A DNA stretch of 47,736 bases from a virus (IMGVR_UViG_2778261460_000004); one strand, 5' to 3'; shown: positions 4,778-27,993, counted from the stretch's first letter. Numbers and translations: made by a program. Notes: generated by a model not told the origin, from the letters alone.

Positions 4778-4836
4778 AAAAAGGGCGGCAGAGCAGTCAC
4801 GAAGTAAAACTGATACCGCCAAACGTCACCAGAAAA
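4778..4836 (-). ncRNA. dicF: DicF small regulatory RNA (ftsZ-targeting sRNA) with 3' terminator-like hairpin
   Basis: Reverse complement of 4784-4836 reads TTTTCTGGTGACGTTTGGCGGTATCAGTTTTACTTCGTGACTGCTCTGCCGCCC followed by a T-run, matching the recalled 53-nt DicF with about 1 mismatch; position between ydfA-type genes and dicB matches the known dicB operon. Confidence 0.75.
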
Positions 4837-6183: not shown

Positions 6184-6603
6184 CTATGATGCGTTTTGTG
6201 CTTTCTTTTTACGGATTTCTTCGTAGATCATATTGTAATACTGTTTTTTCTCTTCAAGAGTTTTTAATAAGTTATCCGCTTCACTTTCTGGCAGTTCGTC
6301 TAAGAGATCTAAAAAAATACGTTGTCGTGGCGTTAGAACCCTTGTTTCATAACTGGAGGCTGTGTTCGTTGATGATGAAACGATACCATCCATCCATCCC
6401 CGGGGTAACCCAAAGGACTCTTCGATAATCTCCACCATATCATCAGCGATCCGTTTTTTTCCCTTTTTCCCCTCTGGGTACAACATTCTTGATACATAAG
6501 AAGGCTCGCGCCCGATCTTTCTGGCCACGTTAACCGCTTTACCATCGCATTTCTCATCACGAATTTTGATGAGTTGCTGTCGTCTAAATTCATATTTGTC
6601 CAT
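6184..6603 (-). CDS. Prophage repressor, DicA/RacR-family HTH protein (cI analogue)
   Basis: 139 aa; N-terminal HTH-like segment (GKAVNVARKIGREPSYVSRML); C-terminal LPESEADNLL motif reminiscent of DicA; divergent from Cro-like gene across an operator-rich intergenic region. Confidence 0.7.
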   Translation of the reverse strand: MDKYEFRRQQLIKIRDEKCDGKAVNVARKIGREPSYVSRMLYPEGKKGKKRIADDMVEIIEESFGLPRGWMDGIVSSSTNTASSYETRVLTPRQRIFLDLLDELPESEADNLLKTLEEKKQYYNMIYEEIRKKKAQNAS

Positions 6604-6703: not shown

Positions 6704-6985
6704 ATGGAAGAATTAAGAATATTTCTCAATTCTCTTTCGTCAGATGAACAGCGTATGTTTGCATGCGAGTGTGGTACCAGCATCGGTTATCTAAGAAAGG
6801 CATTGAGTAAAGGTCAAGTGTTAGGGGCATCGTTATGTGTCCTTATTGAGCGAGCCAGTAATGGTGAAGTTACACGTCAGCAACTAAGGCCTTTTGATTG
6901 GATGAATATTTGGCCCGAGCTGGAAGATACCAAAATGTTAACACAACCACTTTCTAGGAGCTTGATTCATGAAAATCAAGCATGA
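6704..6985 (+). CDS. Cro/YdaS-like HTH regulator
   Basis: 93 aa, first gene rightward of the repressor; SD AAGGAG 6 nt upstream of ATG; resembles Rac YdaS (from memory). Confidence 0.6.
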   Translation: MEELRIFLNSLSSDEQRMFACECGTSIGYLRKALSKGQVLGASLCVLIERASNGEVTRQQLRPFDWMNIWPELEDTKMLTQPLSRSLIHENQA

Positions 6986-7394
6986 ACACATCCGCATGGC
7001 GATGAATGCCTGGGCGCATCCGGACGGTGAAAAAGTTCCGGCAGCTGAAATAACCAGGGCTTATTTTGAACTGGGTATGACGTTCCCAGAACTGTATGAC
7101 GACAGCCATCCGGAAGCCCTGGCTCGCAATACCCAGAAAATTTTCCGCTGGGTAGAGAAAGACACCCCTGATGCAGTTGAAAAAATTCAGGCGTTGTTAC
7201 CAGCTATCGAAAAAGCAATGCCACCTCTGCTGGTGGCCCGAATGCGCAGCCATAGCTCAGCCTATTTTCGGGAACTAGTGGAGACGCGGGAACGACTGGT
7301 GAGAGACGCTGATGATTTTGTCGCAGTGGCGATCGCTGGTTTCAACCAGATGAATCGTGGTGGCCCTGCAGGAAATATTGTGGCTGTGCATTGA
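6969..7394 (+). CDS. YdaT-like (CII-like) protein
   Basis: 141 aa starting MKIKHEHIRMAMNAW..., overlapping Cro-like gene end; matches recalled Rac YdaT. Confidence 0.6.
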   Translation: MKIKHEHIRMAMNAWAHPDGEKVPAAEITRAYFELGMTFPELYDDSHPEALARNTQKIFRWVEKDTPDAVEKIQALLPAIEKAMPPLLVARMRSHSSAYFRELVETRERLVRDADDFVAVAIAGFNQMNRGGPAGNIVAVH

Positions 7395-9333: not shown

Positions 9334-11337
9334 ATGATTATGAGTGAAAATGATACAACCCCAAAGAAGTCTACAAGCCAGATTAACAAAGCGGTATTCT
9401 TTACATCTGCTTTGCTAATTTTCCTTCTTGTCGCCTTTGCCGCCGTATTCCCGGATGTCGCCGACAAAAATTTTAAACTACTTCAGCAACAAATCTTCAC
9501 GAATGCCAGCTGGTTCTACATACTTGCTGTGGCCCTGATTTTACTGAGCGTCACGTTCCTTGGACTCTCACGTTACGGTGATATAAAGCTGGGCCCAGAC
9601 CATGCGCAGCCTGATTTCAGCTACCACTCCTGGTTCGCGATGCTTTTTTCGGCAGGGATGGGGATCGGCCTGATGTTCTTTGGCGTTGCCGAACCTGTGA
9701 TGCATTATCTTTCGCCACCTGTCGGCACTCCAGAGACCGTTGCGGCAGCGAAGGAAGCCATGCGCCTGACGTTCTTCCACTGGGGTCTGCACGCATGGGC
9801 AATTTATGCCATCGTGGCGCTGATTCTGGCCTTTTTCAGTTACCGTCACGGTCTGCCTTTAACGCTGCGTTCTGCGCTCTATCCCATTATCGGCGATCGC
9901 ATTTACGGGCCTATAGGCCACGCGGTTGATATCTTCGCCGTGATAGGCACTGTCTTTGGCGTTGCAACATCGCTGGGTTACGGTGTATTGCAGGTGAATG
10001 CCGGTTTGAACCATCTTTTCGGCGTGCCCATCAATGAAACGGTACAGGTCATTTTGATCGTGGTCATCACGGGGTTAGCGACGATTTCGGTGGTGTCCGG
10101 CCTGGACAAGGGAATACGCATCCTGTCTGAGCTTAATCTGGGCCTGGCGGTGTTGCTCCTGGCGCTGGTCTTGTGCCTGGGTCCCACTGTGCTTCTGCTG
10201 AAGTCATTTGTGGAAAATACGGGTGGTTATCTGTCGGAACTGGTGAGTAAAACGTTCAACCTTTACGCGTATGAACCCAAGTCGAGCAACTGGCTGGGGG
10301 GCTGGACATTATTATACTGGGGATGGTGGCTTTCATGGTCGCCGTTTGTAGGTATGTTCATTGCACGCGTTTCCCGCGGCAGGACAATTCGTGAGTTCGT
10401 GACTGGCGTGTTGTTTGTTCCCGCCGGCTTTACGCTCATGTGGATGACGGTGTTTGGAAACAGCGCCATCTATCTCATCATGAACCAGGGCGCCACTGAC
10501 CTCGCCAATACCGTTCAGCAGGATGTTGCGCTTGCCCTGTTTAATTTCCTGGAGCATTTCCCGTTCTCTTCCGTGCTGTCATTCATTGCAATGGCGATGG
10601 TCATCGTCTTCTTTGTAACGTCTGCTGATTCGGGGGCAATGGTTGTGGATACTCTGGCATCAGGTGGGGTGGCAAACACGCCCGTCTGGCAGCGAATTTT
10701 CTGGGCATCGCTCATGGGCGTTGTTGCTATTGCCCTGCTGATCGCAGGGGGGCTGAGTGCGTTGCAAACCGTAACGATAGCGAGTGCATTGCCCTTCTCA
10801 GTTATCTTATTAATATCCATATACGGACTGTTAAAAGCCCTGCGTCGGGATTTGACCAAGCGTGAAAGCCTTAGCATGGCGACTATTGCTCCTACGGCTG
10901 CACGTAACCCAATTCCCTGGCAGAGAAGGTTACGCAATATCGCGTATTTGCCGAAGCGCTCTCTTGTGAAACGTTTTATGGACGACATTATCCAACCCGC
11001 CATGACGCTGGTTCAGGAGGAACTTAACAAGCAGGGAACGATAAGCCACATCAGTGACGCCGCCGAGGATCGTATTCGCCTTGAAGTCGATTTGGGCAAC
11101 GAGCTGAATTATATATATGAAGTGAGGCTTCGCGGGTATAACTCACCGACCTTCGCGCTCGCTGCGCTGGATAATGATGAGCAGCAGAGTGAACAACATC
11201 GATATTATCGCGCTGAAGTCTATCTCAAAGAGGGCGGCCAAAATTATGATGTAATGGGCTGGAATCAGGAACAGCTGATTAATGACATACTGGACCAGTA
11301 CGAAAAACACCTGCACTTCCTGCATCTGGTTCGTTAA
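9334..11337 (+). CDS. BCCT-family transporter (BetT-like choline/glycine betaine transporter)
   Basis: 667 aa; multiple TM segments; BCCT signature WTLLYWGWWLSWSPFVGMFIARVSRGRTIREF; long cytoplasmic C-terminal extension as in BetT. Confidence 0.85.
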   Translation: MIMSENDTTPKKSTSQINKAVFFTSALLIFLLVAFAAVFPDVADKNFKLLQQQIFTNASWFYILAVALILLSVTFLGLSRYGDIKLGPDHAQPDFSYHSWFAMLFSAGMGIGLMFFGVAEPVMHYLSPPVGTPETVAAAKEAMRLTFFHWGLHAWAIYAIVALILAFFSYRHGLPLTLRSALYPIIGDRIYGPIGHAVDIFAVIGTVFGVATSLGYGVLQVNAGLNHLFGVPINETVQVILIVVITGLATISVVSGLDKGIRILSELNLGLAVLLLALVLCLGPTVLLLKSFVENTGGYLSELVSKTFNLYAYEPKSSNWLGGWTLLYWGWWLSWSPFVGMFIARVSRGRTIREFVTGVLFVPAGFTLMWMTVFGNSAIYLIMNQGATDLANTVQQDVALALFNFLEHFPFSSVLSFIAMAMVIVFFVTSADSGAMVVDTLASGGVANTPVWQRIFWASLMGVVAIALLIAGGLSALQTVTIASALPFSVILLISIYGLLKALRRDLTKRESLSMATIAPTAARNPIPWQRRLRNIAYLPKRSLVKRFMDDIIQPAMTLVQEELNKQGTISHISDAAEDRIRLEVDLGNELNYIYEVRLRGYNSPTFALAALDNDEQQSEQHRYYRAEVYLKEGGQNYDVMGWNQEQLINDILDQYEKHLHFLHLVR

Positions 11338-11385
11338 CAGCAACATGCCGCCACAGAGGCGGCATTTATTTATCCCGGCTGCAAT

Positions 11386-12678
11386 ATGAGGGAATGCAGA
11401 ATGATTTCACGCTGGAAATGGATGCTGAAGCAGACATTTAAAAAACTATGGTTCAGGGCAACGTTATTCGCAATTGTCGCAATAATAACGGCCCTTTTAT
11501 CAATTCTTTTTAAATCAATGATACCTGAGTCGGTTTCCGTGAAGGTTGGTGCGGAAGCAGTCGATAACATTCTGAACATACTGGCATCGAGTATGCTGGC
11601 CGTGACCACATTTTCGCTGAGCATCATGGTCACAGCCTACGGTTCAGCCACTACTAATGTGACTCCCAGAGCTACTCGTTTAGTTGTTGAAGACGTCACC
11701 ACACAAAATGTACTGGCCACCTTCATCGGTTCTTTTCTCTTCAGTCTGGTAGGGATTATTGCCCTCAATATGGGAGCTTATGGAGAAAGGGGGAGAGTCA
11801 TTTTATTCATTGTAACACTGGTTGTCATTGCCTTAATCCTCATCACATTGCTTCGCTGGATACAGCATTTGACCTCTCTGGGGAGGGTTGGTGAGACAAC
11901 GGCAAAAGTAGAACAGGCGGCCATCGAAACATTTATTGCGAGAGCAAGAAATCCCTGTCTCGGCGGATATCCATGGCTTGAGAACAATGAACAGCCGAAA
12001 GGAACGGTTGCAGTTTATCCGAAAAAGATTGGCTATGTTGAATATGTTGATATGGTGAAACTCAGCAAGCTGCTGACCAATGATCCCCGTCATGTATACC
12101 TCGTGGCGCAGCCGGGCAGTTTCATACATCCGTCCACGCCAGTTTTGTACCTGAGTCAGGGCCAGGAGTCATCAATCAGCACCGATTTACTTGAGACGAT
12201 TATTGTCTCGGATGTACGTTCATTTGCTCAGGACCCCCGATTTTGTCTTAGCGTCATGGCCGAAATAGCCTGCCGAGCCCTTTCCCCCGCAGTGAACGAT
12301 CCTGGAACCGCCATTGATGTCATTGGCAGAGGTGTACGTATACTTTCCGCTTACGCGCAGAATAAATCTGATGAAATAGAAGTGAAATATCCTTCTGTAC
12401 ATGTTGCACCACTTCAGAATAACGATCTACTTGAAGACTTTTTCTCACCTGTTGCGCGCGATGGTGCCAGTATGAGGGAAATTCAGATAAGGGTACTTAA
12501 AGGACTGTCGATGCTGAGTAAGGGTTGGCCTGGAATTTTTGCTGAAGCCGCACAAACCCTAGCATTTGAAACATTAGAGCATGCTACTCGTGCTGACCAT
12601 ATAGATTCTGACAGATATCTAATAAAATCAATTTATTATAATTTATTTAGTGGCGAAGATTCTAATAAAAAACCATAG
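11386..12678 (+). CDS. Membrane protein with N-terminal TM helices and large soluble domain (DUF2254-like)
   Basis: 430 aa; about 4-5 hydrophobic helices in first 170 aa; about 50 bp downstream of the BCCT gene on same strand. Family assignment from memory, moderate. Confidence 0.55.
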   Translation: MRECRMISRWKWMLKQTFKKLWFRATLFAIVAIITALLSILFKSMIPESVSVKVGAEAVDNILNILASSMLAVTTFSLSIMVTAYGSATTNVTPRATRLVVEDVTTQNVLATFIGSFLFSLVGIIALNMGAYGERGRVILFIVTLVVIALILITLLRWIQHLTSLGRVGETTAKVEQAAIETFIARARNPCLGGYPWLENNEQPKGTVAVYPKKIGYVEYVDMVKLSKLLTNDPRHVYLVAQPGSFIHPSTPVLYLSQGQESSISTDLLETIIVSDVRSFAQDPRFCLSVMAEIACRALSPAVNDPGTAIDVIGRGVRILSAYAQNKSDEIEVKYPSVHVAPLQNNDLLEDFFSPVARDGASMREIQIRVLKGLSMLSKGWPGIFAEAAQTLAFETLEHATRADHIDSDRYLIKSIYYNLFSGEDSNKKP

Positions 12679-13189: not shown

Positions 13190-13473
13190 GATGGAAGAAG
13201 CGGGTGTTACTATTGAAAAACCACATGTTCGCTCCTCGCTCAAAGCTGCCTGTCATGCTTGCTTAAAAAACAGGCTTAACGTAGGATATTTTCCGTTTTC
13301 CAAGCGGACCCCATAAGTGGCGCATTAGGCACAAGTGGTTGAGGGGATGGGAAGCCATAACGGAAAATGATTTTGACAGTGACAACGCAGCTTTCAGTTA
13401 TGCATATGACCACTTTTTAAAAAGTGATTTCTCAAAAAATAGAAATAAATAACAAATTTTCTAATGGTGTCAA

Positions 13474-14532
13474 ATGGAAAGTATCGCGCTATACAACTGG
13501 GCTACAAGTGTTTTGTCTTCTATTACAGAAGATTTGAATGAACATTACTATAAAGAAATTAATGGCAGTCTCGCTTTACAATTTGAAACTACAGATATTG
13601 TGAACGCTAGAGCTTTAGTTTACTCAGAGCGTGATGAACCACCAAGGCATGCTATATCAATCACATATAAATTAATCCGATCATTATATGATGATGCTGC
13701 TGCTTTTGTAGATTATGTTCACTCTGGTAAAGATGATGAAGTTTATGATATGTGGTTTAATGGGCAAACCAACTTTAGCACTTTAAGAAATGAGTGGGAT
13801 AAAACTAATTTCACTAAAAACATTTTTCTAGCAGGTTTGACATGGGTTTTTTTTCATGAGTTAGGACACTTAACTCAGGGCCATTTATTTATAAGGAACA
13901 GGTATAGTTCCGAAATTAATGTAATGTCTGAAATTCACTTAAATAATTTATCATCAGACAATAACGATGCATCTGCCATTTGGCACGCAACGGAACTTGC
14001 AGCCGATTATTTTTCCACATACATGTGTGTAATAGAAATTGTTCGACAACTTGCCATTAATGAAGATTGCGAATTGGCAATTTGCTTTTTGACATGTGGT
14101 ATATCATTAATGTTACATCGTTTTCAAGGCGAAAAACTTTATGAGGTTCAAACAGAACCAGTTGGTACACATCCTAGGCCATTCGTAAGGCTTGAAATGA
14201 TCGTGCCTTTAATTTTTGAAATACTTTCTATTCCAAACACAGATCAACGTCGTAGTTATGTGCTTGCAGGTGGTGAATCGGCCAACAGGGTTGGACTTTT
14301 CTGGATAAGAAAGACTGGAATAATGGAGGGTATTCCTGAACATTATCTTATCGAAGGTACATTGAACCGGCCTGGAGTTGTTGAGTATTTGAGGCATATC
14401 ATTTTTATTTGGGATAGCATTTCATCTGAAATCTCTGAGATGTTCACTTTTGGCACAAAAAAAATGCTTCTTAACTTCACGAATGTACTTCGGACTACAC
14501 CGGATTTGAATGATGATACACAGGAAAAATAA
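13474..14532 (+). CDS. Putative cytoplasmic zinc metallopeptidase-like protein (HExxH motif)
   Basis: 352 aa; motif VFFHELGHLTQGH at residues 126-138 (HExxH plus downstream His); no signal peptide; AT-rich, atypical composition for the host. Confidence 0.5.
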   Translation: MESIALYNWATSVLSSITEDLNEHYYKEINGSLALQFETTDIVNARALVYSERDEPPRHAISITYKLIRSLYDDAAAFVDYVHSGKDDEVYDMWFNGQTNFSTLRNEWDKTNFTKNIFLAGLTWVFFHELGHLTQGHLFIRNRYSSEINVMSEIHLNNLSSDNNDASAIWHATELAADYFSTYMCVIEIVRQLAINEDCELAICFLTCGISLMLHRFQGEKLYEVQTEPVGTHPRPFVRLEMIVPLIFEILSIPNTDQRRSYVLAGGESANRVGLFWIRKTGIMEGIPEHYLIEGTLNRPGVVEYLRHIIFIWDSISSEISEMFTFGTKKMLLNFTNVLRTTPDLNDDTQEK

Positions 14533-15044
14533 TGCTGATCAGTGTTAATTAACAATTCGCATAATATAGGGGGGCTGTACCGGAACCGCCAGAAATTTCT
14601 GGCGCAGTGAATTAGTCGAATTTTGAAGCATGTTTGGCATGTGCTGACGTGTACGTTTATGGTGCCGTGAGTGAGAATTTATCCGTACCAGCTATGTGAG
14701 ACGCTGCGGTCAGTGATTTTTCGTTCCAAACGGCCATTTCTTTACTGTCCGGTTGACGGCGGTCTTACGTACAGGCAGACAACCGCAAACATTATGCGTC
14801 ACGGAAATTTCTGCGGTTCTGGCGTACAACCCCAAATTAACGTCCGCTCATCGCTCAAAGCGGACTAGAAGGTTAGCTTGCGTCGGACTTGGCGTATTTA
14901 AAGAAGTACTGGTGGTGACTGGTTGTTGTGTTCCATTTCTACAGAACAAAATCACAGAAACTATACCCAATAGTTGTATCTCATCAATGATGAGACAGCC
15001 TCATATTTATCAGGACTGGTGTACGTCCAATACAGGAGGTTGTC

Positions 15045-15134: not shown

Positions 15135-15345
15135 TTTTATATTGGCGAGGTAACGGGAGTTAAGTAGAATGGCTGCGGGTGCTTGAGGCTATCTGTCTCA
15201 GGCATGAACACCAAAGGCAGATAGAGAAAAGCCCCAGTTAACATTACGCGTCCTGCAAGACGCTTAACATTAATCTGAGGCTCAATCTATGAACGGCAAA
15301 TCTAGGTTAGCCTCTTACGTGCCGAAAGGCAAGGAGAAGCAGGCT

Positions 15346-15501
15346 ATGAAGCAGCAAAAGGCGATGTTAATCGCCCTGATCGTCATCTGTTTAACCGTCA
15401 TAGTGACGGCACTGGTAACGAGGAAAGACCTCTGCGAGGTACGAATCCGAACCGGCCAGACGGAGGTCGCTGTCTTCACAGCTTACGAACCTGAGGAGTA
15501 A
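15346..15501 (+). CDS. hokD: Hok-family type I toxin HokD (RelF)
   Basis: 51-aa product MKQQKAMLIALIVICLTVIVTALVTRKDLCEVRIRTGQTEVAVFTAYEPEE matches recalled HokD; in-frame upstream extension (from 15289) may correspond to a mok-like frame; antisense Sok-like RNA expected upstream but not delimited. Confidence 0.85.
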   Translation: MKQQKAMLIALIVICLTVIVTALVTRKDLCEVRIRTGQTEVAVFTAYEPEE

Positions 15502-18578: not shown

Positions 18579-19628
18579 ATGGCCAATACTGTAAAAATAT
18601 CCAGTTGTGAGTTAATCAACGCTGATTGCCTGGAATTTATCCAGACCTTACCGGAAAATTCTGTCGATCTGATAGTCACAGACCCGCCATACTTTAAAGT
18701 GAAGCCCGAGGGCTGGGATAACCAGTGGAAGGGCGATGATGATTACCTGAAATGGCTGGACCAGTGTCTGGCGCAGTTCTGGCGGGTACTGAAGCCTGCC
18801 GGAAGTCTTTACCTGTTCTGTGGTCATCGCCTGGCATCTGACACCGAAATCATGATGCGTGAACGCTTTAATGTGCTGAACCACATTATCTGGGCGAAGC
18901 CGTCCGGACGCTGGAACGGGTGCAATAAGGAAAGTCTGCGGGCGTATTTTCCGGCAACAGAGCGCATTCTGTTTGCAGAACATTATCAGGGACCGTATCG
19001 CCCGAAAGATGATGGCTATGTGGAGCAGGGGCGCGAGCTAAAACAGCACGTCATGGCCCCGCTGATTTCTTACTTTCGTGATGCGCGTAAATCACTGGGA
19101 ATAACGTCAAAACAGATAGCGGAAGCCACCGGAAAGAAAAACATGGCTTCGCACTGGTTTGGTACCAGTCAGTGGCAGTTACCGAACGAGGGTGATTACA
19201 ACAAATTGCAGGCGTTGTTTGCGCGTGTTGCGGCAGAAAAACATCAGCGCGGGGAACTGGAAAAGCCACACCACCAGCTGGTCAGCACATACAGTGAGCT
19301 GAACTGGCAGTATACGGAACTGCTGAGTGAATATAAAAATTTGCGGCGGTATTTCGGTGTGACGGCGCAGGTTCCGTACACCGATGTCTGGACGCATAAA
19401 CCGGTGCAGTACTATCCAGGGAAACATCCGTGCGAAAAACCGGCAGAAATGCTGCAGCAGATAATCAACGCGAGCAGTCGTCCGGGAGACCTGGTTGCAG
19501 ATTTTTTTATGGGTTCAGGTTCAACGGTAAAAGCGGCGATGGCACTGGGGCGTTGTGCGATTGGTGTTGAGCTGGAGACCGGACGTTTTGAACAGACAGT
19601 CAGGGAAGTTCAGGATTTAATCGTTTGA
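18579..19628 (+). CDS. DNA methyltransferase, beta-class (DPPY motif IV before FxGxG motif I), N6-adenine or N4-cytosine; orphan
   Basis: 349 aa; LIVTDPPYF near N-terminus and DFFMGSGST near C-terminus; no restriction endonuclease gene adjacent. Confidence 0.85.
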   Translation: MANTVKISSCELINADCLEFIQTLPENSVDLIVTDPPYFKVKPEGWDNQWKGDDDYLKWLDQCLAQFWRVLKPAGSLYLFCGHRLASDTEIMMRERFNVLNHIIWAKPSGRWNGCNKESLRAYFPATERILFAEHYQGPYRPKDDGYVEQGRELKQHVMAPLISYFRDARKSLGITSKQIAEATGKKNMASHWFGTSQWQLPNEGDYNKLQALFARVAAEKHQRGELEKPHHQLVSTYSELNWQYTELLSEYKNLRRYFGVTAQVPYTDVWTHKPVQYYPGKHPCEKPAEMLQQIINASSRPGDLVADFFMGSGSTVKAAMALGRCAIGVELETGRFEQTVREVQDLIV

Positions 19629-19677: not shown

Positions 19678-19753
19678 GGCCCTTTAGCTCAGTGGTGAGA
19701 GCGAGCGACTCATAATCGCCAGGTCGCTGGTTCAAATCCAGCAAGGGCCACCA
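19678..19753 (+). tRNA. tRNA-Ile2-like (anticodon CAU; ileX/ileZ-like), could formally be Met
   Basis: 76 nt GGCCCTTTAGCTCAGTGG...CTCATAA anticodon loop...TTCAAATCC...AAGGGCCACCA; one mismatch in anticodon stem. Confidence 0.8.
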
Positions 19754-19754
19754 A

Positions 19755-19831
19755 TCGCCACTAGCTCATCAGGAAAGAGCGTCAACCCTTTAAGTTGAGT
19801 GTGCGAGGTTCGAGTCCCCGGTGGCGGTCCA
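19755..19831 (+). tRNA. tRNA-like gene, atypical (anticodon loop CCUUUAA, possibly Lys-UUU or a degenerate Arg tRNA)
   Basis: Acceptor stem TCGCCAC/GTGGCGG, T-loop TTCGAGT, 3' CCA present; C at position 33 and one T-stem mismatch make the assignment uncertain. Confidence 0.5.
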
Positions 19832-19833
19832 GT

Positions 19834-19909
<76 letters not shown>

Positions 19910-19912
19910 TAT

Positions 19913-19987
<75 letters not shown>

Positions 19988-21187: not shown

Positions 21188-21721
21188 ATGAACGCAAAAA
21201 TCAAATACGGCCTGTCAGCGGTCGTTCTGGCGCTGATTGGAGCAGGCGCATCTGCTCCTCAAATACTTGACCAGTTTCTGGATGAAAAAGAGGGTAACCA
21301 CACTACGGCATACCGCGATGGTTCCGGTATATGGACCATCTGTCGTGGTGCCACAATGGTGGATGATAAGCCCGTCATACCGGGAATGAAGCTGTCGAAG
21401 GAAAAATGCGACCAGGTTAACGCTATTGAACGTGATAAGGCGCTGGCATGGGTGGAGCGCAATATTAAAGTACCTCTGACCGAACCACAGAAAGCGGGTA
21501 TAGCGTCATTTTGTCCCTATAACATTGGCCCCGGTAAGTGTTTCCCGTCGACGTTTTATAAGCGGCTGAATGCCGGTGATCGTAAAGGTGCCTGCGAGGC
21601 GATTCGCTGGTGGATTAAGGACAGGGGGCGCGATTGCCGCATTCGTTTAAATAACTGTTATGGTCAGGTTATTCGTCGTGACCAGGAAAGCGCATTAGCC
21701 TGTTGGGGGATAGAGCAGTGA
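21188..21721 (+). CDS. SAR endolysin (T4-lysozyme-type, RrrQ-like)
   Basis: 177 aa; hydrophobic Gly/Ala-rich N-terminal SAR segment ([15 protein letters not shown]); lysozyme catalytic region [20 protein letters not shown]. Confidence 0.9.
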
Positions 21722-22185
21722 GCAGAGTTGCCGCGATTATTTATGCTCTGGTTATCTGCATCATCGTCTGCCTGTCGTGGGCGGTCAATCATTACCGTGA
21801 TAACGCCATCGCCTATAAAGAACAGCGTGATAAAAAAGTCAGTGAGCTGAAGCAGGCGACCGCCACCATTACTGACATGCAGCAGCGCCAGCGTGCTGCT
21901 GATGCACTTGATGCTAAATACACGAAGGAGTTAGCTGATGCGAAAGCTGAAAATGATGCTCTTCGGCGCAAGCTTGATAATGGTGGTCGGGTGTTCGTCA
22001 AAGGGAAATGCCCTGTGCCATCCTCAGCCGAAACCTCCAGCGCCTCCGGCATGGGCAATGATGCCACCGTCGAACTCTCTCCAGTTGCTGGACGAAACGT
22101 TCTCGGTATCCGGGACGGAATCATCAGCGATCAAACAGCACTGAGAACGCTTCAGGAATACATCAGGACGCAATGCCTTCGATGA
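21718..22185 (+). CDS. Spanin inner-membrane subunit Rz
   Basis: GTG start overlapping endolysin stop; N-terminal TM ([27 protein letters not shown]), coiled-coil body; track ORF begins earlier at an alternative start. Confidence 0.8.
21938..22144 (+). CDS. Spanin outer-membrane lipoprotein Rz1, embedded in +1 frame of Rz
   Basis: 68 aa with lipobox (LIMVVGCSS) and Pro-rich segment [16 protein letters not shown]. Confidence 0.7.
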
Positions 22186-22359
22186 TAGCGATAATTTTAC
22201 TTATCATTCTTCACATCTGGCTCTGTAGACAGGGTGGTGAACACTTCTGGAGTGAATCCAGATTAAACATCTCATTGCTGATGCTTGATATTGAGCATAT
22301 TGCGCGCGGTAAGGGGCTGCGTTGAGATAAGAGCCAGTCATTACAAATACCAGGATTTA

Positions 22360-22385
22360 GCCTCGCATTCGCGGGGCTTTTTATT
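22360..22385 (+). terminator. Rho-independent terminator-like hairpin after lysis genes
   Basis: GCCTCGC-ATTC-GCGGGGC followed by TTTTTATT; a second hairpin AAAGCCACT...AGTGGCTTT lies at about 22402-22428. Confidence 0.45.
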
Positions 22386-22676
22386 GCCATTACAAAAGCC
22401 ACTTCCTACAGAGTGGCTTTGATAATGGTTTATACCCTACACGGGATAACTTAACTGATATCCCTTTTAAAGGATAAAGGTATTCAAGCCTGACACATCA
22501 TGCGCTGTATCGTCGCCGTATTCCCGTATTAACAGAGACCGTAGCCCGACGGGGAACTCCTTCTGCGCGAGTGTGCGGGAATAATCAAAAACGATGCACA
22601 CCGGGGTTACCGGGTACACATATTTCATCATGCCAGCGAGTCCGGTTCTGGCGCGGAAGAAACCGGATGTTATTAT

Positions 22677-23102
22677 TTAGTGCGGAAATATTTGTGTAGT
22701 GTTCTGAATGTTCTCAGTAAAGAGTAATGAATTATCAAAGGTATAGTAATACCTTTTGTTTTCGTGGATATTTGTAATCCATCTGAAAACCCCTGCTGTA
22801 GCAAGATTTTTCCTGTATTCGTAAAATGATAACTCTCCTGATTTGAATCCTTTTAATGTGGCTTCTATAAGGCATTTATTTTTTGAAAATCTTACATTTA
22901 CAACCTTACCCTGTCCTTTTATTAAAACCGTATTATCGTTTTCAAGAACAAGATGAATATTCTCTGTGGCTAAATAGTAAATGTAATGTGAGACATTGTG
23001 ACGTTTTAGTTCAGAATAAAACCAGTGATAGTTTAAATTATTTCGCACTTTATCAAATATTTGTTTAAAAATGACTACCTGATCCATAGATAAACCTTCC
23101 AT
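22677..23102 (-). CDS. Hypothetical AT-rich 141-aa protein between Rz and cos (moron position)
   Basis: Strongly AT-rich codon usage unlike flanking phage genes; Tyr/Asn/Lys-rich; no signal peptide or lipobox, so not Bor. Confidence 0.45.
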
Positions 23103-23144
23103 ATGATATGAGAGCGCGTAGTTTGCAAGATCGTTTTTATCGTT

Positions 23145-23378
23145 TCAATCTGGTCTGACCTGTTTTCTGAGCAATTCAGTAATGTCACTCTTTTCTTTGT
23201 TTGCTTCAGGCGAAACTCTTTTTTCTGAGCACAGTCTCCGGCGGCAGGCTTCAATGACCCAGGCTGAGAAATTCCCGGACCCTTTTTGAACAAGAGCGAT
23301 GTTAATTTGTTCAATCATTTGGTTAGGAAAGCGGATGTTGCGGGTTGTTGTTCTGCGGGTTCTGTTCTTCGTTGACAT
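23145..23378 (-). CDS. YlcI-like ribbon-helix-helix protein (DUF3950-like)
   Basis: 77 aa MSTKNRTRRTTTRNIRFPNQMIEQINIALVQKGSGNFSAWVIEACRRRL... matches recalled DLP12 YlcI. Confidence 0.6.
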   Translation of the reverse strand: MSTKNRTRRTTTRNIRFPNQMIEQINIALVQKGSGNFSAWVIEACRRRLCSEKRVSPEANKEKSDITELLRKQVRPD

Positions 23379-23577
23379 GAGGTTGCCCTGTATTCAGTGT
23401 CGCTGATTTGTATTGTCTGAAGTTGTTTTTACGTTAAGTTGATGCAGATCAATTAATACGATACCTGCGTCATAATTGATTATTTGACGTGGTTTGATGG
23501 CCTCCACGCACGTTGTGATATGTAGATGATAATCATTATCACTTTACGGGTCCTTTCCGGTGATCCGACAGGTTACG

Positions 23578-23760
23578 GGGCGGCGACCTCGCGGGTTTTC
23601 GCTATTTATGAAAAATTTCCGGTTTAAGGCGTTTCCGTTCTTCTTCGTCATAACTTAATGTTTTTATTTAAAATACCCTCTGAAAAGAAAGGAAACGACA
23701 GGTGCTGAAAGCGAGCTTTTTGGCCTCTGTCGTTTCCTTTCTCTGTTTTTGTCCGTGGAA
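23578..23760 (+). other. Lambda-type cos site (cosN 12-nt cohesive end at 23578-23589, followed by cosB)
   Basis: GGGCGGCGACCTCGCGGGTTTTCGCTATTTATGAAAA... matches the recalled lambda left end; sequence just upstream (...CCGACAGGTTACG) matches the lambda right end. Confidence 0.85.
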
Positions 23761-23766
23761 TGAACA

Positions 23767-24286
23767 ATGGAAGTCAACAAAAAGCAGCTGGCTGACATTT
23801 TCGGTGCGAGTATCCGTACCATTCAGAACTGGCAGGAACAGGGAATGCCCGTTCTGCGAGGCGGTGGCAAGGGTAATGAGGTGCTTTATGATTCTGCCGC
23901 CGTTATAAAATGGTATGCCGAAAGGGATGCTGAAATTGAGAACGAAAAGCTGCGCCGGGAGGTTGAAGAACTGCGGCAGGCCAGCGAGGCAGATCTCCAG
24001 CCAGGGACTATTGAGTACGAACGCCATCGACTTACGCGTGCGCAGGCCGACGCACAGGAACTGAAGAATGCCAGAGACTCCGCTGAAGTGGTGGAAACCG
24101 CATTCTGTACTTTCGTGCTGTCGCGGATCGCAGGTGAAATTGCCAGTATTCTCGACGGGATCCCCCTGTCGGTGCAGCGGCGTTTTCCGGAACTGGAAAA
24201 CCGACATGTTGATTTCCTGAAACGGGATATCATCAAAGCCATGAACAAAGCAGCCGCGCTGGATGAACTGATACCGGGGTTGCTGA

Positions 24287-24312
<26 letters not shown>
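23767..24312 (+). CDS. nu1: Terminase small subunit Nu1
   Basis: 181 aa, MEVNKKQLADIFGASIRTIQNWQEQGMPV... near-identical to lambda Nu1. Confidence 0.95.

Positions 24313-27993
<3,681 letters not shown>

Follow-up and report, generated by a model that had tools for sequence, protein, structure and literature searches.

In the 47,736-nt stretch of viral DNA analysed here (the window), an AT-rich open reading frame lies between the lysis genes and cos and points against the late operon. The question is what kind of gene this is and whether it serves the virion, the lytic cycle or the lysogen. An earlier note, written from the sequence without database searches, had taken it for a moron in the position of the lambda gene bor and had recognised no motif in its product. 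The gene is in fact already known and ordinary: it is the DUF1398 accessory gene (YdfO, YbcV or lambda p78) in its usual lambdoid place.

An AT-rich gene of the DUF1398 family

The ORF (22677..23102, minus strand, 141 aa) is intact and is present as the earlier note gave it. Its GC content is 0.305 in comparison with 0.513 for the whole window (30.5% vs 51.3%) and 0.45-0.53 for the neighbouring genes. The lowest-GC 426-bp stretch of the 47.7 kb falls here, with a minimum of 0.298 at 22667 (z = -3.2); only 0.07% of such stretches are as low. The contrast is far beyond chance, and the sharp compositional break that had been described is upheld.

The mechanical ORF reaches the ATG at 23102. The natural product is probably the 136-aa protein that starts at the ATG at 23087 (coding sequence 22677..23087, minus strand). 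There is a Shine–Dalgarno-like GGAAGG at 23095..23100 (minus strand, read from the sequence), 7 nt upstream of this ATG, and there is no purine-rich or Shine–Dalgarno-like stretch upstream of the first ATG at 23102. Consistent with this, diverse family members in a 16-sequence alignment align from the methionine encoded at 23087, and the RefSeq/PGAP annotation is of the 411-nt, 136-aa form. The 141-aa form is the one used for the structure 2HH8.

The protein matches the Pfam family DUF1398 (PF07166) over the full profile, from position 1 to 119 of 119, with an E-value of 3.4e-43 and a score of 146.9 bits where the cut-off is 22. A phmmer search of the PDB returns 2HH8, the NMR structure of the 'hypothetical protein YdfO' from the Qin prophage of E. 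coli, with an E-value of 2.8e-72, which places the window protein in the fold of the solved family structure. The comparison with YbcV and DUF1398 that the earlier note had suggested thus gives the answer. The novelty implied by its remark that no motif was recognised does not survive, as this is a full-length DUF1398 protein of a family with a solved structure and is routinely annotated. The ORF is a genuine gene for a soluble DUF1398 protein, orthologous to lambda p78, DLP12 YbcV and Qin YdfO, and the family identity is near certain. The profile, searched against PDB sequences and Pfam at permissive E-values, found nothing beyond 2HH8 and DUF1398, and the DUF1398 fold is an orphan.

In the same 16-sequence alignment, which reaches down to 21% identity, nine positions are invariant or nearly so (L27, Y35, T41, N43, G84, A96, G99, W103 and Y114 in the 136-aa numbering) and the window protein has all nine. 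The conserved columns consist of hydrophobic, aromatic or glycine residues, and there is no recognisable catalytic set among the conserved positions of these 16 sequences. There is no lipobox, the one cysteine is residue 72 and the maximum Kyte–Doolittle 19-residue mean is 0.39, so that neither a transmembrane segment nor a signal peptide is predicted. We considered Bor itself as an identity for the protein and rejected it on these features and because Pfam yields only DUF1398; the earlier note had come to the same view from the missing lipobox and signal peptide. It had also called the protein rich in tyrosine and asparagine, which is correct (Asn 10.6%, Tyr 7.1% of residues) and is expected from AT-rich codons.

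A confident AF2 model predicts a first half consisting of helices 3-17 and 20-29 and strands 32-38, 44-48 and 53-56, and a second half consisting of helices 71-82 and 88-97 and strands 102-106, 111-115 and 121-126. This topology is suggestive of a duplicated alpha-alpha-beta-beta-beta unit. An hhalign comparison of the two halves (P 0.003, probability 10%) gives weak sequence support for an internal duplication.

The leftward cassette between Rz and cos

To the left of the gene is the lysis cassette, with a phage lysozyme gene (21188..21721), a holin-sized ORF, Rz (21703..22185; Pfam Phage_lysis) and the embedded Rz1 ORF (21938..22144), all on the plus strand. To the right, the lambda 12-nt cohesive-end sequence of cos, GGGCGGCGACCT, is matched exactly at 23578..23589 (plus strand) and bounds the cassette; it is followed by Nu1 (23767..24312; Pfam Phage_Nu1, E 9e-101) and, downstream of Nu1, by the gene for the large terminase (24287..26212). 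The placement of the gene between Rz/Rz1 and cos, opposite to the late operon, is therefore as the earlier note had it.

Directly upstream of the DUF1398 gene, on the same strand, there is a gene for a 77-aa protein of the YlcI/YnfO family (DUF3950; 23145..23378, minus strand; Pfam PF13132, E 2e-20; NCBIfam YlcI_YnfO_N, E 9e-9), with a gap of 42 nt to the 141-aa ORF. The DUF1398 gene is the second gene of a leftward cassette, after this ynfO-like gene, and is antisense to the late transcript. Loci of E. albertii, Escherichia sp., Shigella and E. coli, and Qin-like loci, show the same order nu1 - ynfO - DUF1398 - Rz, and in one of them Nu1 is only 37% identical. The window has the minimal layout: Rz/Rz1, a small hydrophobic 50-aa ORF, a pair of terminators, DUF1398, the ynfO-like gene and cos.

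The two terminators stand back to back. The hairpin after Rz (22359..22378, plus strand) was found by a consensus scan (8 pairs, 6 of them GC, then a T-run). The other, a candidate intrinsic terminator of the leftward unit at 22398..22422 (minus strand), has the form AAAGCCACT-N8-AGTGGCTTT followed by TTGT; the simple consensus scan did not pick it up, and the 61-nt segment that contains it folds with -21 kcal/mol (ViennaRNA). A further hairpin lies 3' of the DUF1398 stop codon at 22640..22665, with arms CCGGTT...AACCGG in the window and CCGGCT...AGCCGG in the Qin-like copy, which is a compensatory change. In 22100..23800 no Rfam element came close to its gathering score. The promoter matches upstream of the ynfO-like gene reach 8/12 at best; they are no better than in shuffled sequence, which gave more of them, and we found no convincing sigma-70 promoter for the cassette.

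Between the gene and its candidate terminator there is a 54-aa ORF (22467..22631, minus strand), which is probably no gene. Profile searches gave it no family match and its frame is broken by stop codons in lambda and in two of the loci collected (L005 and L009), so we rejected it as a third gene of the cassette. It overlies non-coding DNA that is conserved with lambda and DLP12. In lambda and HK630 the equivalent DNA bears the promoter annotated upstream of bor. In HK630 this is a minus-strand feature located between p78 and bor, and we take it to be the bor promoter; the corresponding region is present in the window despite the absence of bor.

Taken in the sense of Hendrix and Juhala, as an autonomous additional gene of a phage, the description as a moron stands in part. 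The base composition fits, and so does the patchy presence of the gene at this junction, where bor and p79 on either side also come and go. The minus-strand hairpin with its T-rich tail (22422..22398) would be its own terminator, and the promoter matches are weak.

The close pairing with the ynfO-like gene raises the idea of a type II toxin-antitoxin-like or abortive-infection pair, in which the small, basic YnfO-like protein would serve as a ribbon-helix-helix (RHH) antitoxin-repressor, with DUF1398 as the toxin. The small gene is indeed upstream, on the same strand and 42 nt away, its sequence pattern (a basic N-terminal tail, RNIRFP, a helix, G-x-N and a helix) is RHH-like by eye, and its AF2 monomer (pLDDT 68) has an extended N-terminus followed by helices 19-32, 34-52 and 57-72. 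However, the RHH assignment finds no support in profile or structure searches: Pfam gives only DUF3950 at E-values up to 10, phmmer against the PDB gives nothing and the best Foldseek hit in the PDB has an E-value of 9.7. It is kept here as an impression of the sequence pattern. The two genes are also separable, as about 0.56 kb with a convergent p79/ybcW-like gene lies between them in lambda and DLP12-like loci, and every paralogue at 53% identity or less lacks a ynfO neighbour. Neither the DUF1398 nor the YnfO-like protein matches any of 5,027 PADLOC models (PADLOC-DB 2.0) at E 1e-3 or better. Finally, YdfO was made in quantity for NMR and overexpression libraries report only a glycogen phenotype, from which we infer that strong toxicity is unlikely. 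Taken together, the data make such a pair very unlikely.

Some annotations point instead to a component of the virion or envelope. The protein matches PHROG 413 (E 6e-89), which carries the label 'head protein' and the category 'head and packaging', its gene is close to cos and the terminase genes, and lambda-derived records (the lambda record and COG5562) bear the label 'envelope protein'. Against this, transcription runs opposite to the late operon, the protein has no signal peptide, transmembrane segment or lipobox, and paralogues are common as solitary chromosomal genes without phage context. Additionally, lambda p78 is non-essential for plaque formation in a genome-wide CRISPRi study, with EOP values of 1.9 and 1.3 (PMC10695390). 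We found no support for 'head protein' in the sequence, the context or these lambda essentiality data, and in the sources found both labels come without an experimental reference. They look like annotation transferred by position, and a structural role is highly improbable. The 'head protein' label of PHROG 413 has been copied by many recent phage annotations.

Divergence and distribution of the gene

Pairwise dN/dS values against the lambda, Qin-like and DLP12-like copies are 0.18-0.33 in all divergent pairs: the gene is under purifying selection. The two outer segments, residues 1-56 and 98-136, are under strong constraint (omega 0.10-0.22), while residues 57-97, which comprise the linker and helices 3-4, diverge faster (dN 0.33 in comparison with 0.04-0.11 elsewhere). 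We rejected positive selection on this segment on account of its omega of 0.26-0.56 together with a dS that is raised as well; the pattern looks like mosaicism or relaxed constraint.

Its extreme AT content, and the failure to find a strong promoter match, might suggest that the ORF is a chance reading frame or a decaying pseudogene in AT-rich DNA. The full-length family match, the signature of purifying selection, the confident AF2 model and the transcripts of paralogues measured in several studies all argue against this, and leave it hardly any probability.

At a nucleotide identity of at least 80%, the ORF has matches in 2,717 of the 5,426 complete E. coli genomes, and in 1,064 of these the identity reaches at least 95%; the RefSeq label on the matching DNA is 'DUF1398 domain-containing protein'. 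Per E. coli genome, a 1.2-kb query (the ORF with its flanks) is found at 2 places in the median and at 15 at most. The gene is found in only 43 of 50,697 phage records, which are all lambda-like or lambda itself, and 239 records share parts of the 1.2-kb region. A phmmer search of 1.84 billion representative sequences gave only 183 clusters with an E-value of 1e-3 or lower, many of which are fragments. The gene is genuinely present in Escherichia, Shigella, Citrobacter, Klebsiella, Kluyvera, Raoultella, Pseudocitrobacter and Salmonella diarizonae, and there are distant single-domain chromosomal members in the Weeksellaceae (Bacteroidota). In the locus search, for which an alignment of seven sequences was used because the first alignment was too diverse, the lambdoid ynfO/cos context is limited to copies with at least 75% identity and to L058, a copy that is degraded and frameshifted. 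The copies at 24-53% identity stand alone and mostly lie in AT-rich islands.

A different class of match was set aside. Lambda p78 and ylcI occur on contigs of about 3.5 kb or about 48.5 kb in dozens of unrelated assemblies (loci L011-L032 and L043-L047 included), among them Pseudomonas, Kitasatospora, Brevibacillus, Flavobacterium, Cohnella, Bacillales and others, and in records assigned to Staphylococcus aureus, to a spider and to a 'Campylobacter phage'. These '75% identical' matches in unrelated taxa are almost certainly contamination with lambda control DNA, which inflates the apparent taxonomic range of both DUF1398 and DUF3950. Longer matches that were considered as domain fusions were mostly noisy contigs of about 3.5 kb from the same control DNA and were rejected.

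Many morons at lambdoid hot spots act in exclusion or defence by binding. The DUF1398 protein, expressed in the lysogen, might likewise be a superinfection-exclusion, anti-phage defence or anti-defence factor whose binding partner belongs to an incoming phage or to a host immune system. The gene lies at a classic moron hot spot, adjoining the place of bor in lambda, it is accessory and patchy among phages, and it is present in several copies per E. coli genome. The faster evolution of residues 57-97 could be read in the same way, but their omega values, with dS raised too, speak against it. The PADLOC models gave no match, and the distant paralogues of Klebsiella, Kluyvera, Salmonella diarizonae and the Bacteroidota are solitary, without phage context. 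Loss of ydfO was among the changes in one spontaneous phage-resistant APEC mutant, which is anecdotal (PMC8711792). On balance we regard a role of this kind as unlikely.

Several other loci in the prophage deserve mention. There is a second AT-rich island at approximately 13195..14558, with a GC content below 0.38, which contains a 352-aa ORF (13474..14532, plus strand) with the zinc-protease motif FFHELGHLTQGH. This ORF has no Pfam match and resembles the phage-exclusion protease Lit weakly (PADLOC E 1.5e-5; NCBIfam PRK09672 E 7e-4, far below the cut-off). We list this nin-region ORF as a candidate abortive-infection gene of the Lit type; it is possibly more interesting than the DUF1398 gene. 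The early region carries cargo at 9334..12678 (plus strand), namely genes for a BCCT (betaine/carnitine/choline) transporter of 667 aa (Pfam E 7e-199) and for a DUF2254 membrane protein of 430 aa. This pair is 99.9% identical in many E. coli genomes, sometimes beside IS elements. The Rfam sok antitoxin RNA is matched at 15177..15351 (plus strand; 110 bits, gathering score 59), which indicates a putative hok/sok-type type I toxin-antitoxin locus in the prophage. The DicF antisense sRNA is matched at 4783..4834 (minus strand; Rfam, 75 bits), and near it are a DicA-like repressor fragment (6184..6603, weak NCBIfam match) and a protein with a YdaT_toxin domain (6969..7394). By these matches this is a Qin/Rac-like immunity region. 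Finally, there are four tandem tRNA genes (Met-CAT, Lys-TTT, Thr-TGT and Gly-TCC; 19678..19987, plus strand), with the lysis cassette on one side and a type II DNA methyltransferase gene (18579..19628; PADLOC MTase_II, E 9e-159) on the other.

Expression, proposed role and known relatives

In lambdoid phages the Q-antiterminated late transcript crosses the p78 region in the opposite direction (lambda transcription map), and DNA of 30% GC is a typical target of H-NS in E. coli. These two points together suggest that the DUF1398 gene is most likely expressed from the resident prophage and not lytically. The published expression data concern paralogues that are 76-80% identical to the window allele. 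Genomic SELEX has located PdhR sites at ybcV/ybcW and at ynfO/ydfO of K-12, and ybcV mRNA is down 10-fold in a pdhR mutant (PMC7660256). There is a 17-mer in the window, AACAGGTCAGACCAGAT at 23148..23164, that is identical to the K-12 ynfO/ydfO SELEX site. This palindrome, read on the minus strand, covers the final codons of the ynfO-like gene and is 46-62 nt upstream of the ATG at 23102; it is a candidate PdhR box. In exponential phase an imidazolium ionic liquid raises ydfO expression 12-fold by microarray and 117-fold by qPCR (PMC4077768), and overexpression of the H-NS-associated T4 protein MotB raises DLP12 ybcV and ybcW more than 1000-fold (PMC7827196). Additionally, ydfO is differentially expressed on induction of DicC (bioRxiv 2024.09.21.614188) and ybcV is up in an evolved sabinene-tolerant strain (PMC7181518).

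Reports of phenotypes are few. Overexpression of ybcV alters glycogen staining (PMC2853380), and glycogen is the only phenotype reported for ybcV or ydfO in overexpression libraries. ydfO has been scored as 'essential' only by TraDIS (PMC5821084), and we infer that this reflects poor transposon access in AT-rich DNA bound by H-NS. Overexpression of YdfO is also said to protect against oxidative stress, with Wang et al. (2010) as the source (PMC4077768). The text of that source (PMC3105296) names YfdK, YfdO and YfdS of CPS-53 and does not contain the string 'ydf'. We therefore reject this claim for YdfO; it is most likely a mix-up of gene names, and later tables have repeated it. Altogether, three labels or claims in wide circulation appear baseless: 'head protein', 'envelope protein' and the oxidative-stress resistance of YdfO. 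Otherwise, no phenotype was found documented in the literature consulted for any DUF1398 gene.

The reading that we prefer, with a probability of roughly one half, is that the gene encodes a cytoplasmic binding protein that is expressed in the lysogen, silenced by H-NS and responsive to stress or to PdhR, that is, a moron. H-NS would keep expression low and particular conditions would switch the gene on. From the K-12 copies, candidate conditions for de-repression would be the PdhR/pyruvate status, stress from membrane-active cations and antagonism of H-NS, with PdhR as a likely activator. Because the predicted duplicated fold has no conserved residues of a catalytic type, we propose that the protein acts stoichiometrically, by binding; its partner could be a macromolecule of the host or of an incoming phage, or a small ligand. 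This mode of action is the weak part of the proposal. The function would be one of lysogenic conversion, to the benefit of the lysogen, and not one in the virion or in replication. For the earlier note, membership of a characterised family whose known role is unrelated would have told against a moron; the family found is not of that kind, because DUF1398 is itself uncharacterised.

A bolder version would make DUF1398 a class of lysogen-expressed effectors. These would be built on the orphan duplicated alpha-alpha-beta-beta-beta platform, whose architecture faintly resembles the ligand-binding platforms of the MHC class I type, and would bind a specific molecule of the host or of a phage. They would be silenced by H-NS and released through PdhR or by envelope or cation stress, with residues 57-97 setting the specificity for the target. 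We think this quite unlikely. If it were true, the window allele, which differs from those of lambda and Qin mainly in residues 57-97, would have a different specificity, and one of the last unexplained conserved genes of lambda would gain a function. As it stands, the window adds one more allele with a divergent central segment and no other leverage on the role of DUF1398. It is also a reminder that a conserved lambda gene is still without an assigned function despite a solved structure in the PDB.

Among the closest known counterparts is lambda p78 (lambdap78; J02459, 47048..47452 complement; 136 aa, 'putative envelope protein'), which is 75% identical in amino acids and approximately 83% in nucleotides. 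The two genes share their strand and their position with respect to cos and the ynfO-like gene. The window aligns with the lambda p78 region over 22501..23161 and, at 98% identity, with the lambda ynfO-like/cos/nu1 region over 23216..23800. There are two differences between the loci. In lambda, bor lies downstream of p78, and the ynfO-like gene is separated from p78 by 0.56 kb of DNA that carries p79 (ybcW-like) on the plus strand; the window has neither bor nor this segment. Since lambda carries both bor and p78, the gene in the window occupies the p78 slot and bor is merely missing, so that the earlier assignment to the bor position has to be corrected. Bor is a serum-resistance lipoprotein with a signal peptide. 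Its gene resembles the DUF1398 gene in being moron-like, antisense to the late operon and located between Rz and cos, but Bor has no sequence relationship to the window protein and the two genes coexist in lambda.

Qin YdfO (UniProt P76156; PDB 2HH8, NMR) is strongly diverged from the window protein in the central segment 57-97. Qin is a defective prophage, whereas the window looks like a complete lambdoid prophage. DLP12 YbcV, E. coli YcgX and the solitary copies of Klebsiella, Kluyvera, Salmonella diarizonae and Epilithonimonas belong to the same family and have the same length, and each is lower in GC than its surroundings. In contrast with the lambdoid loci, the YcgX-type copies (46-53% identity) and those at 24-39% identity have no ynfO, Rz or Nu1 neighbours; in E. 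coli, YcgX forms a stand-alone island between bluR and iraM.
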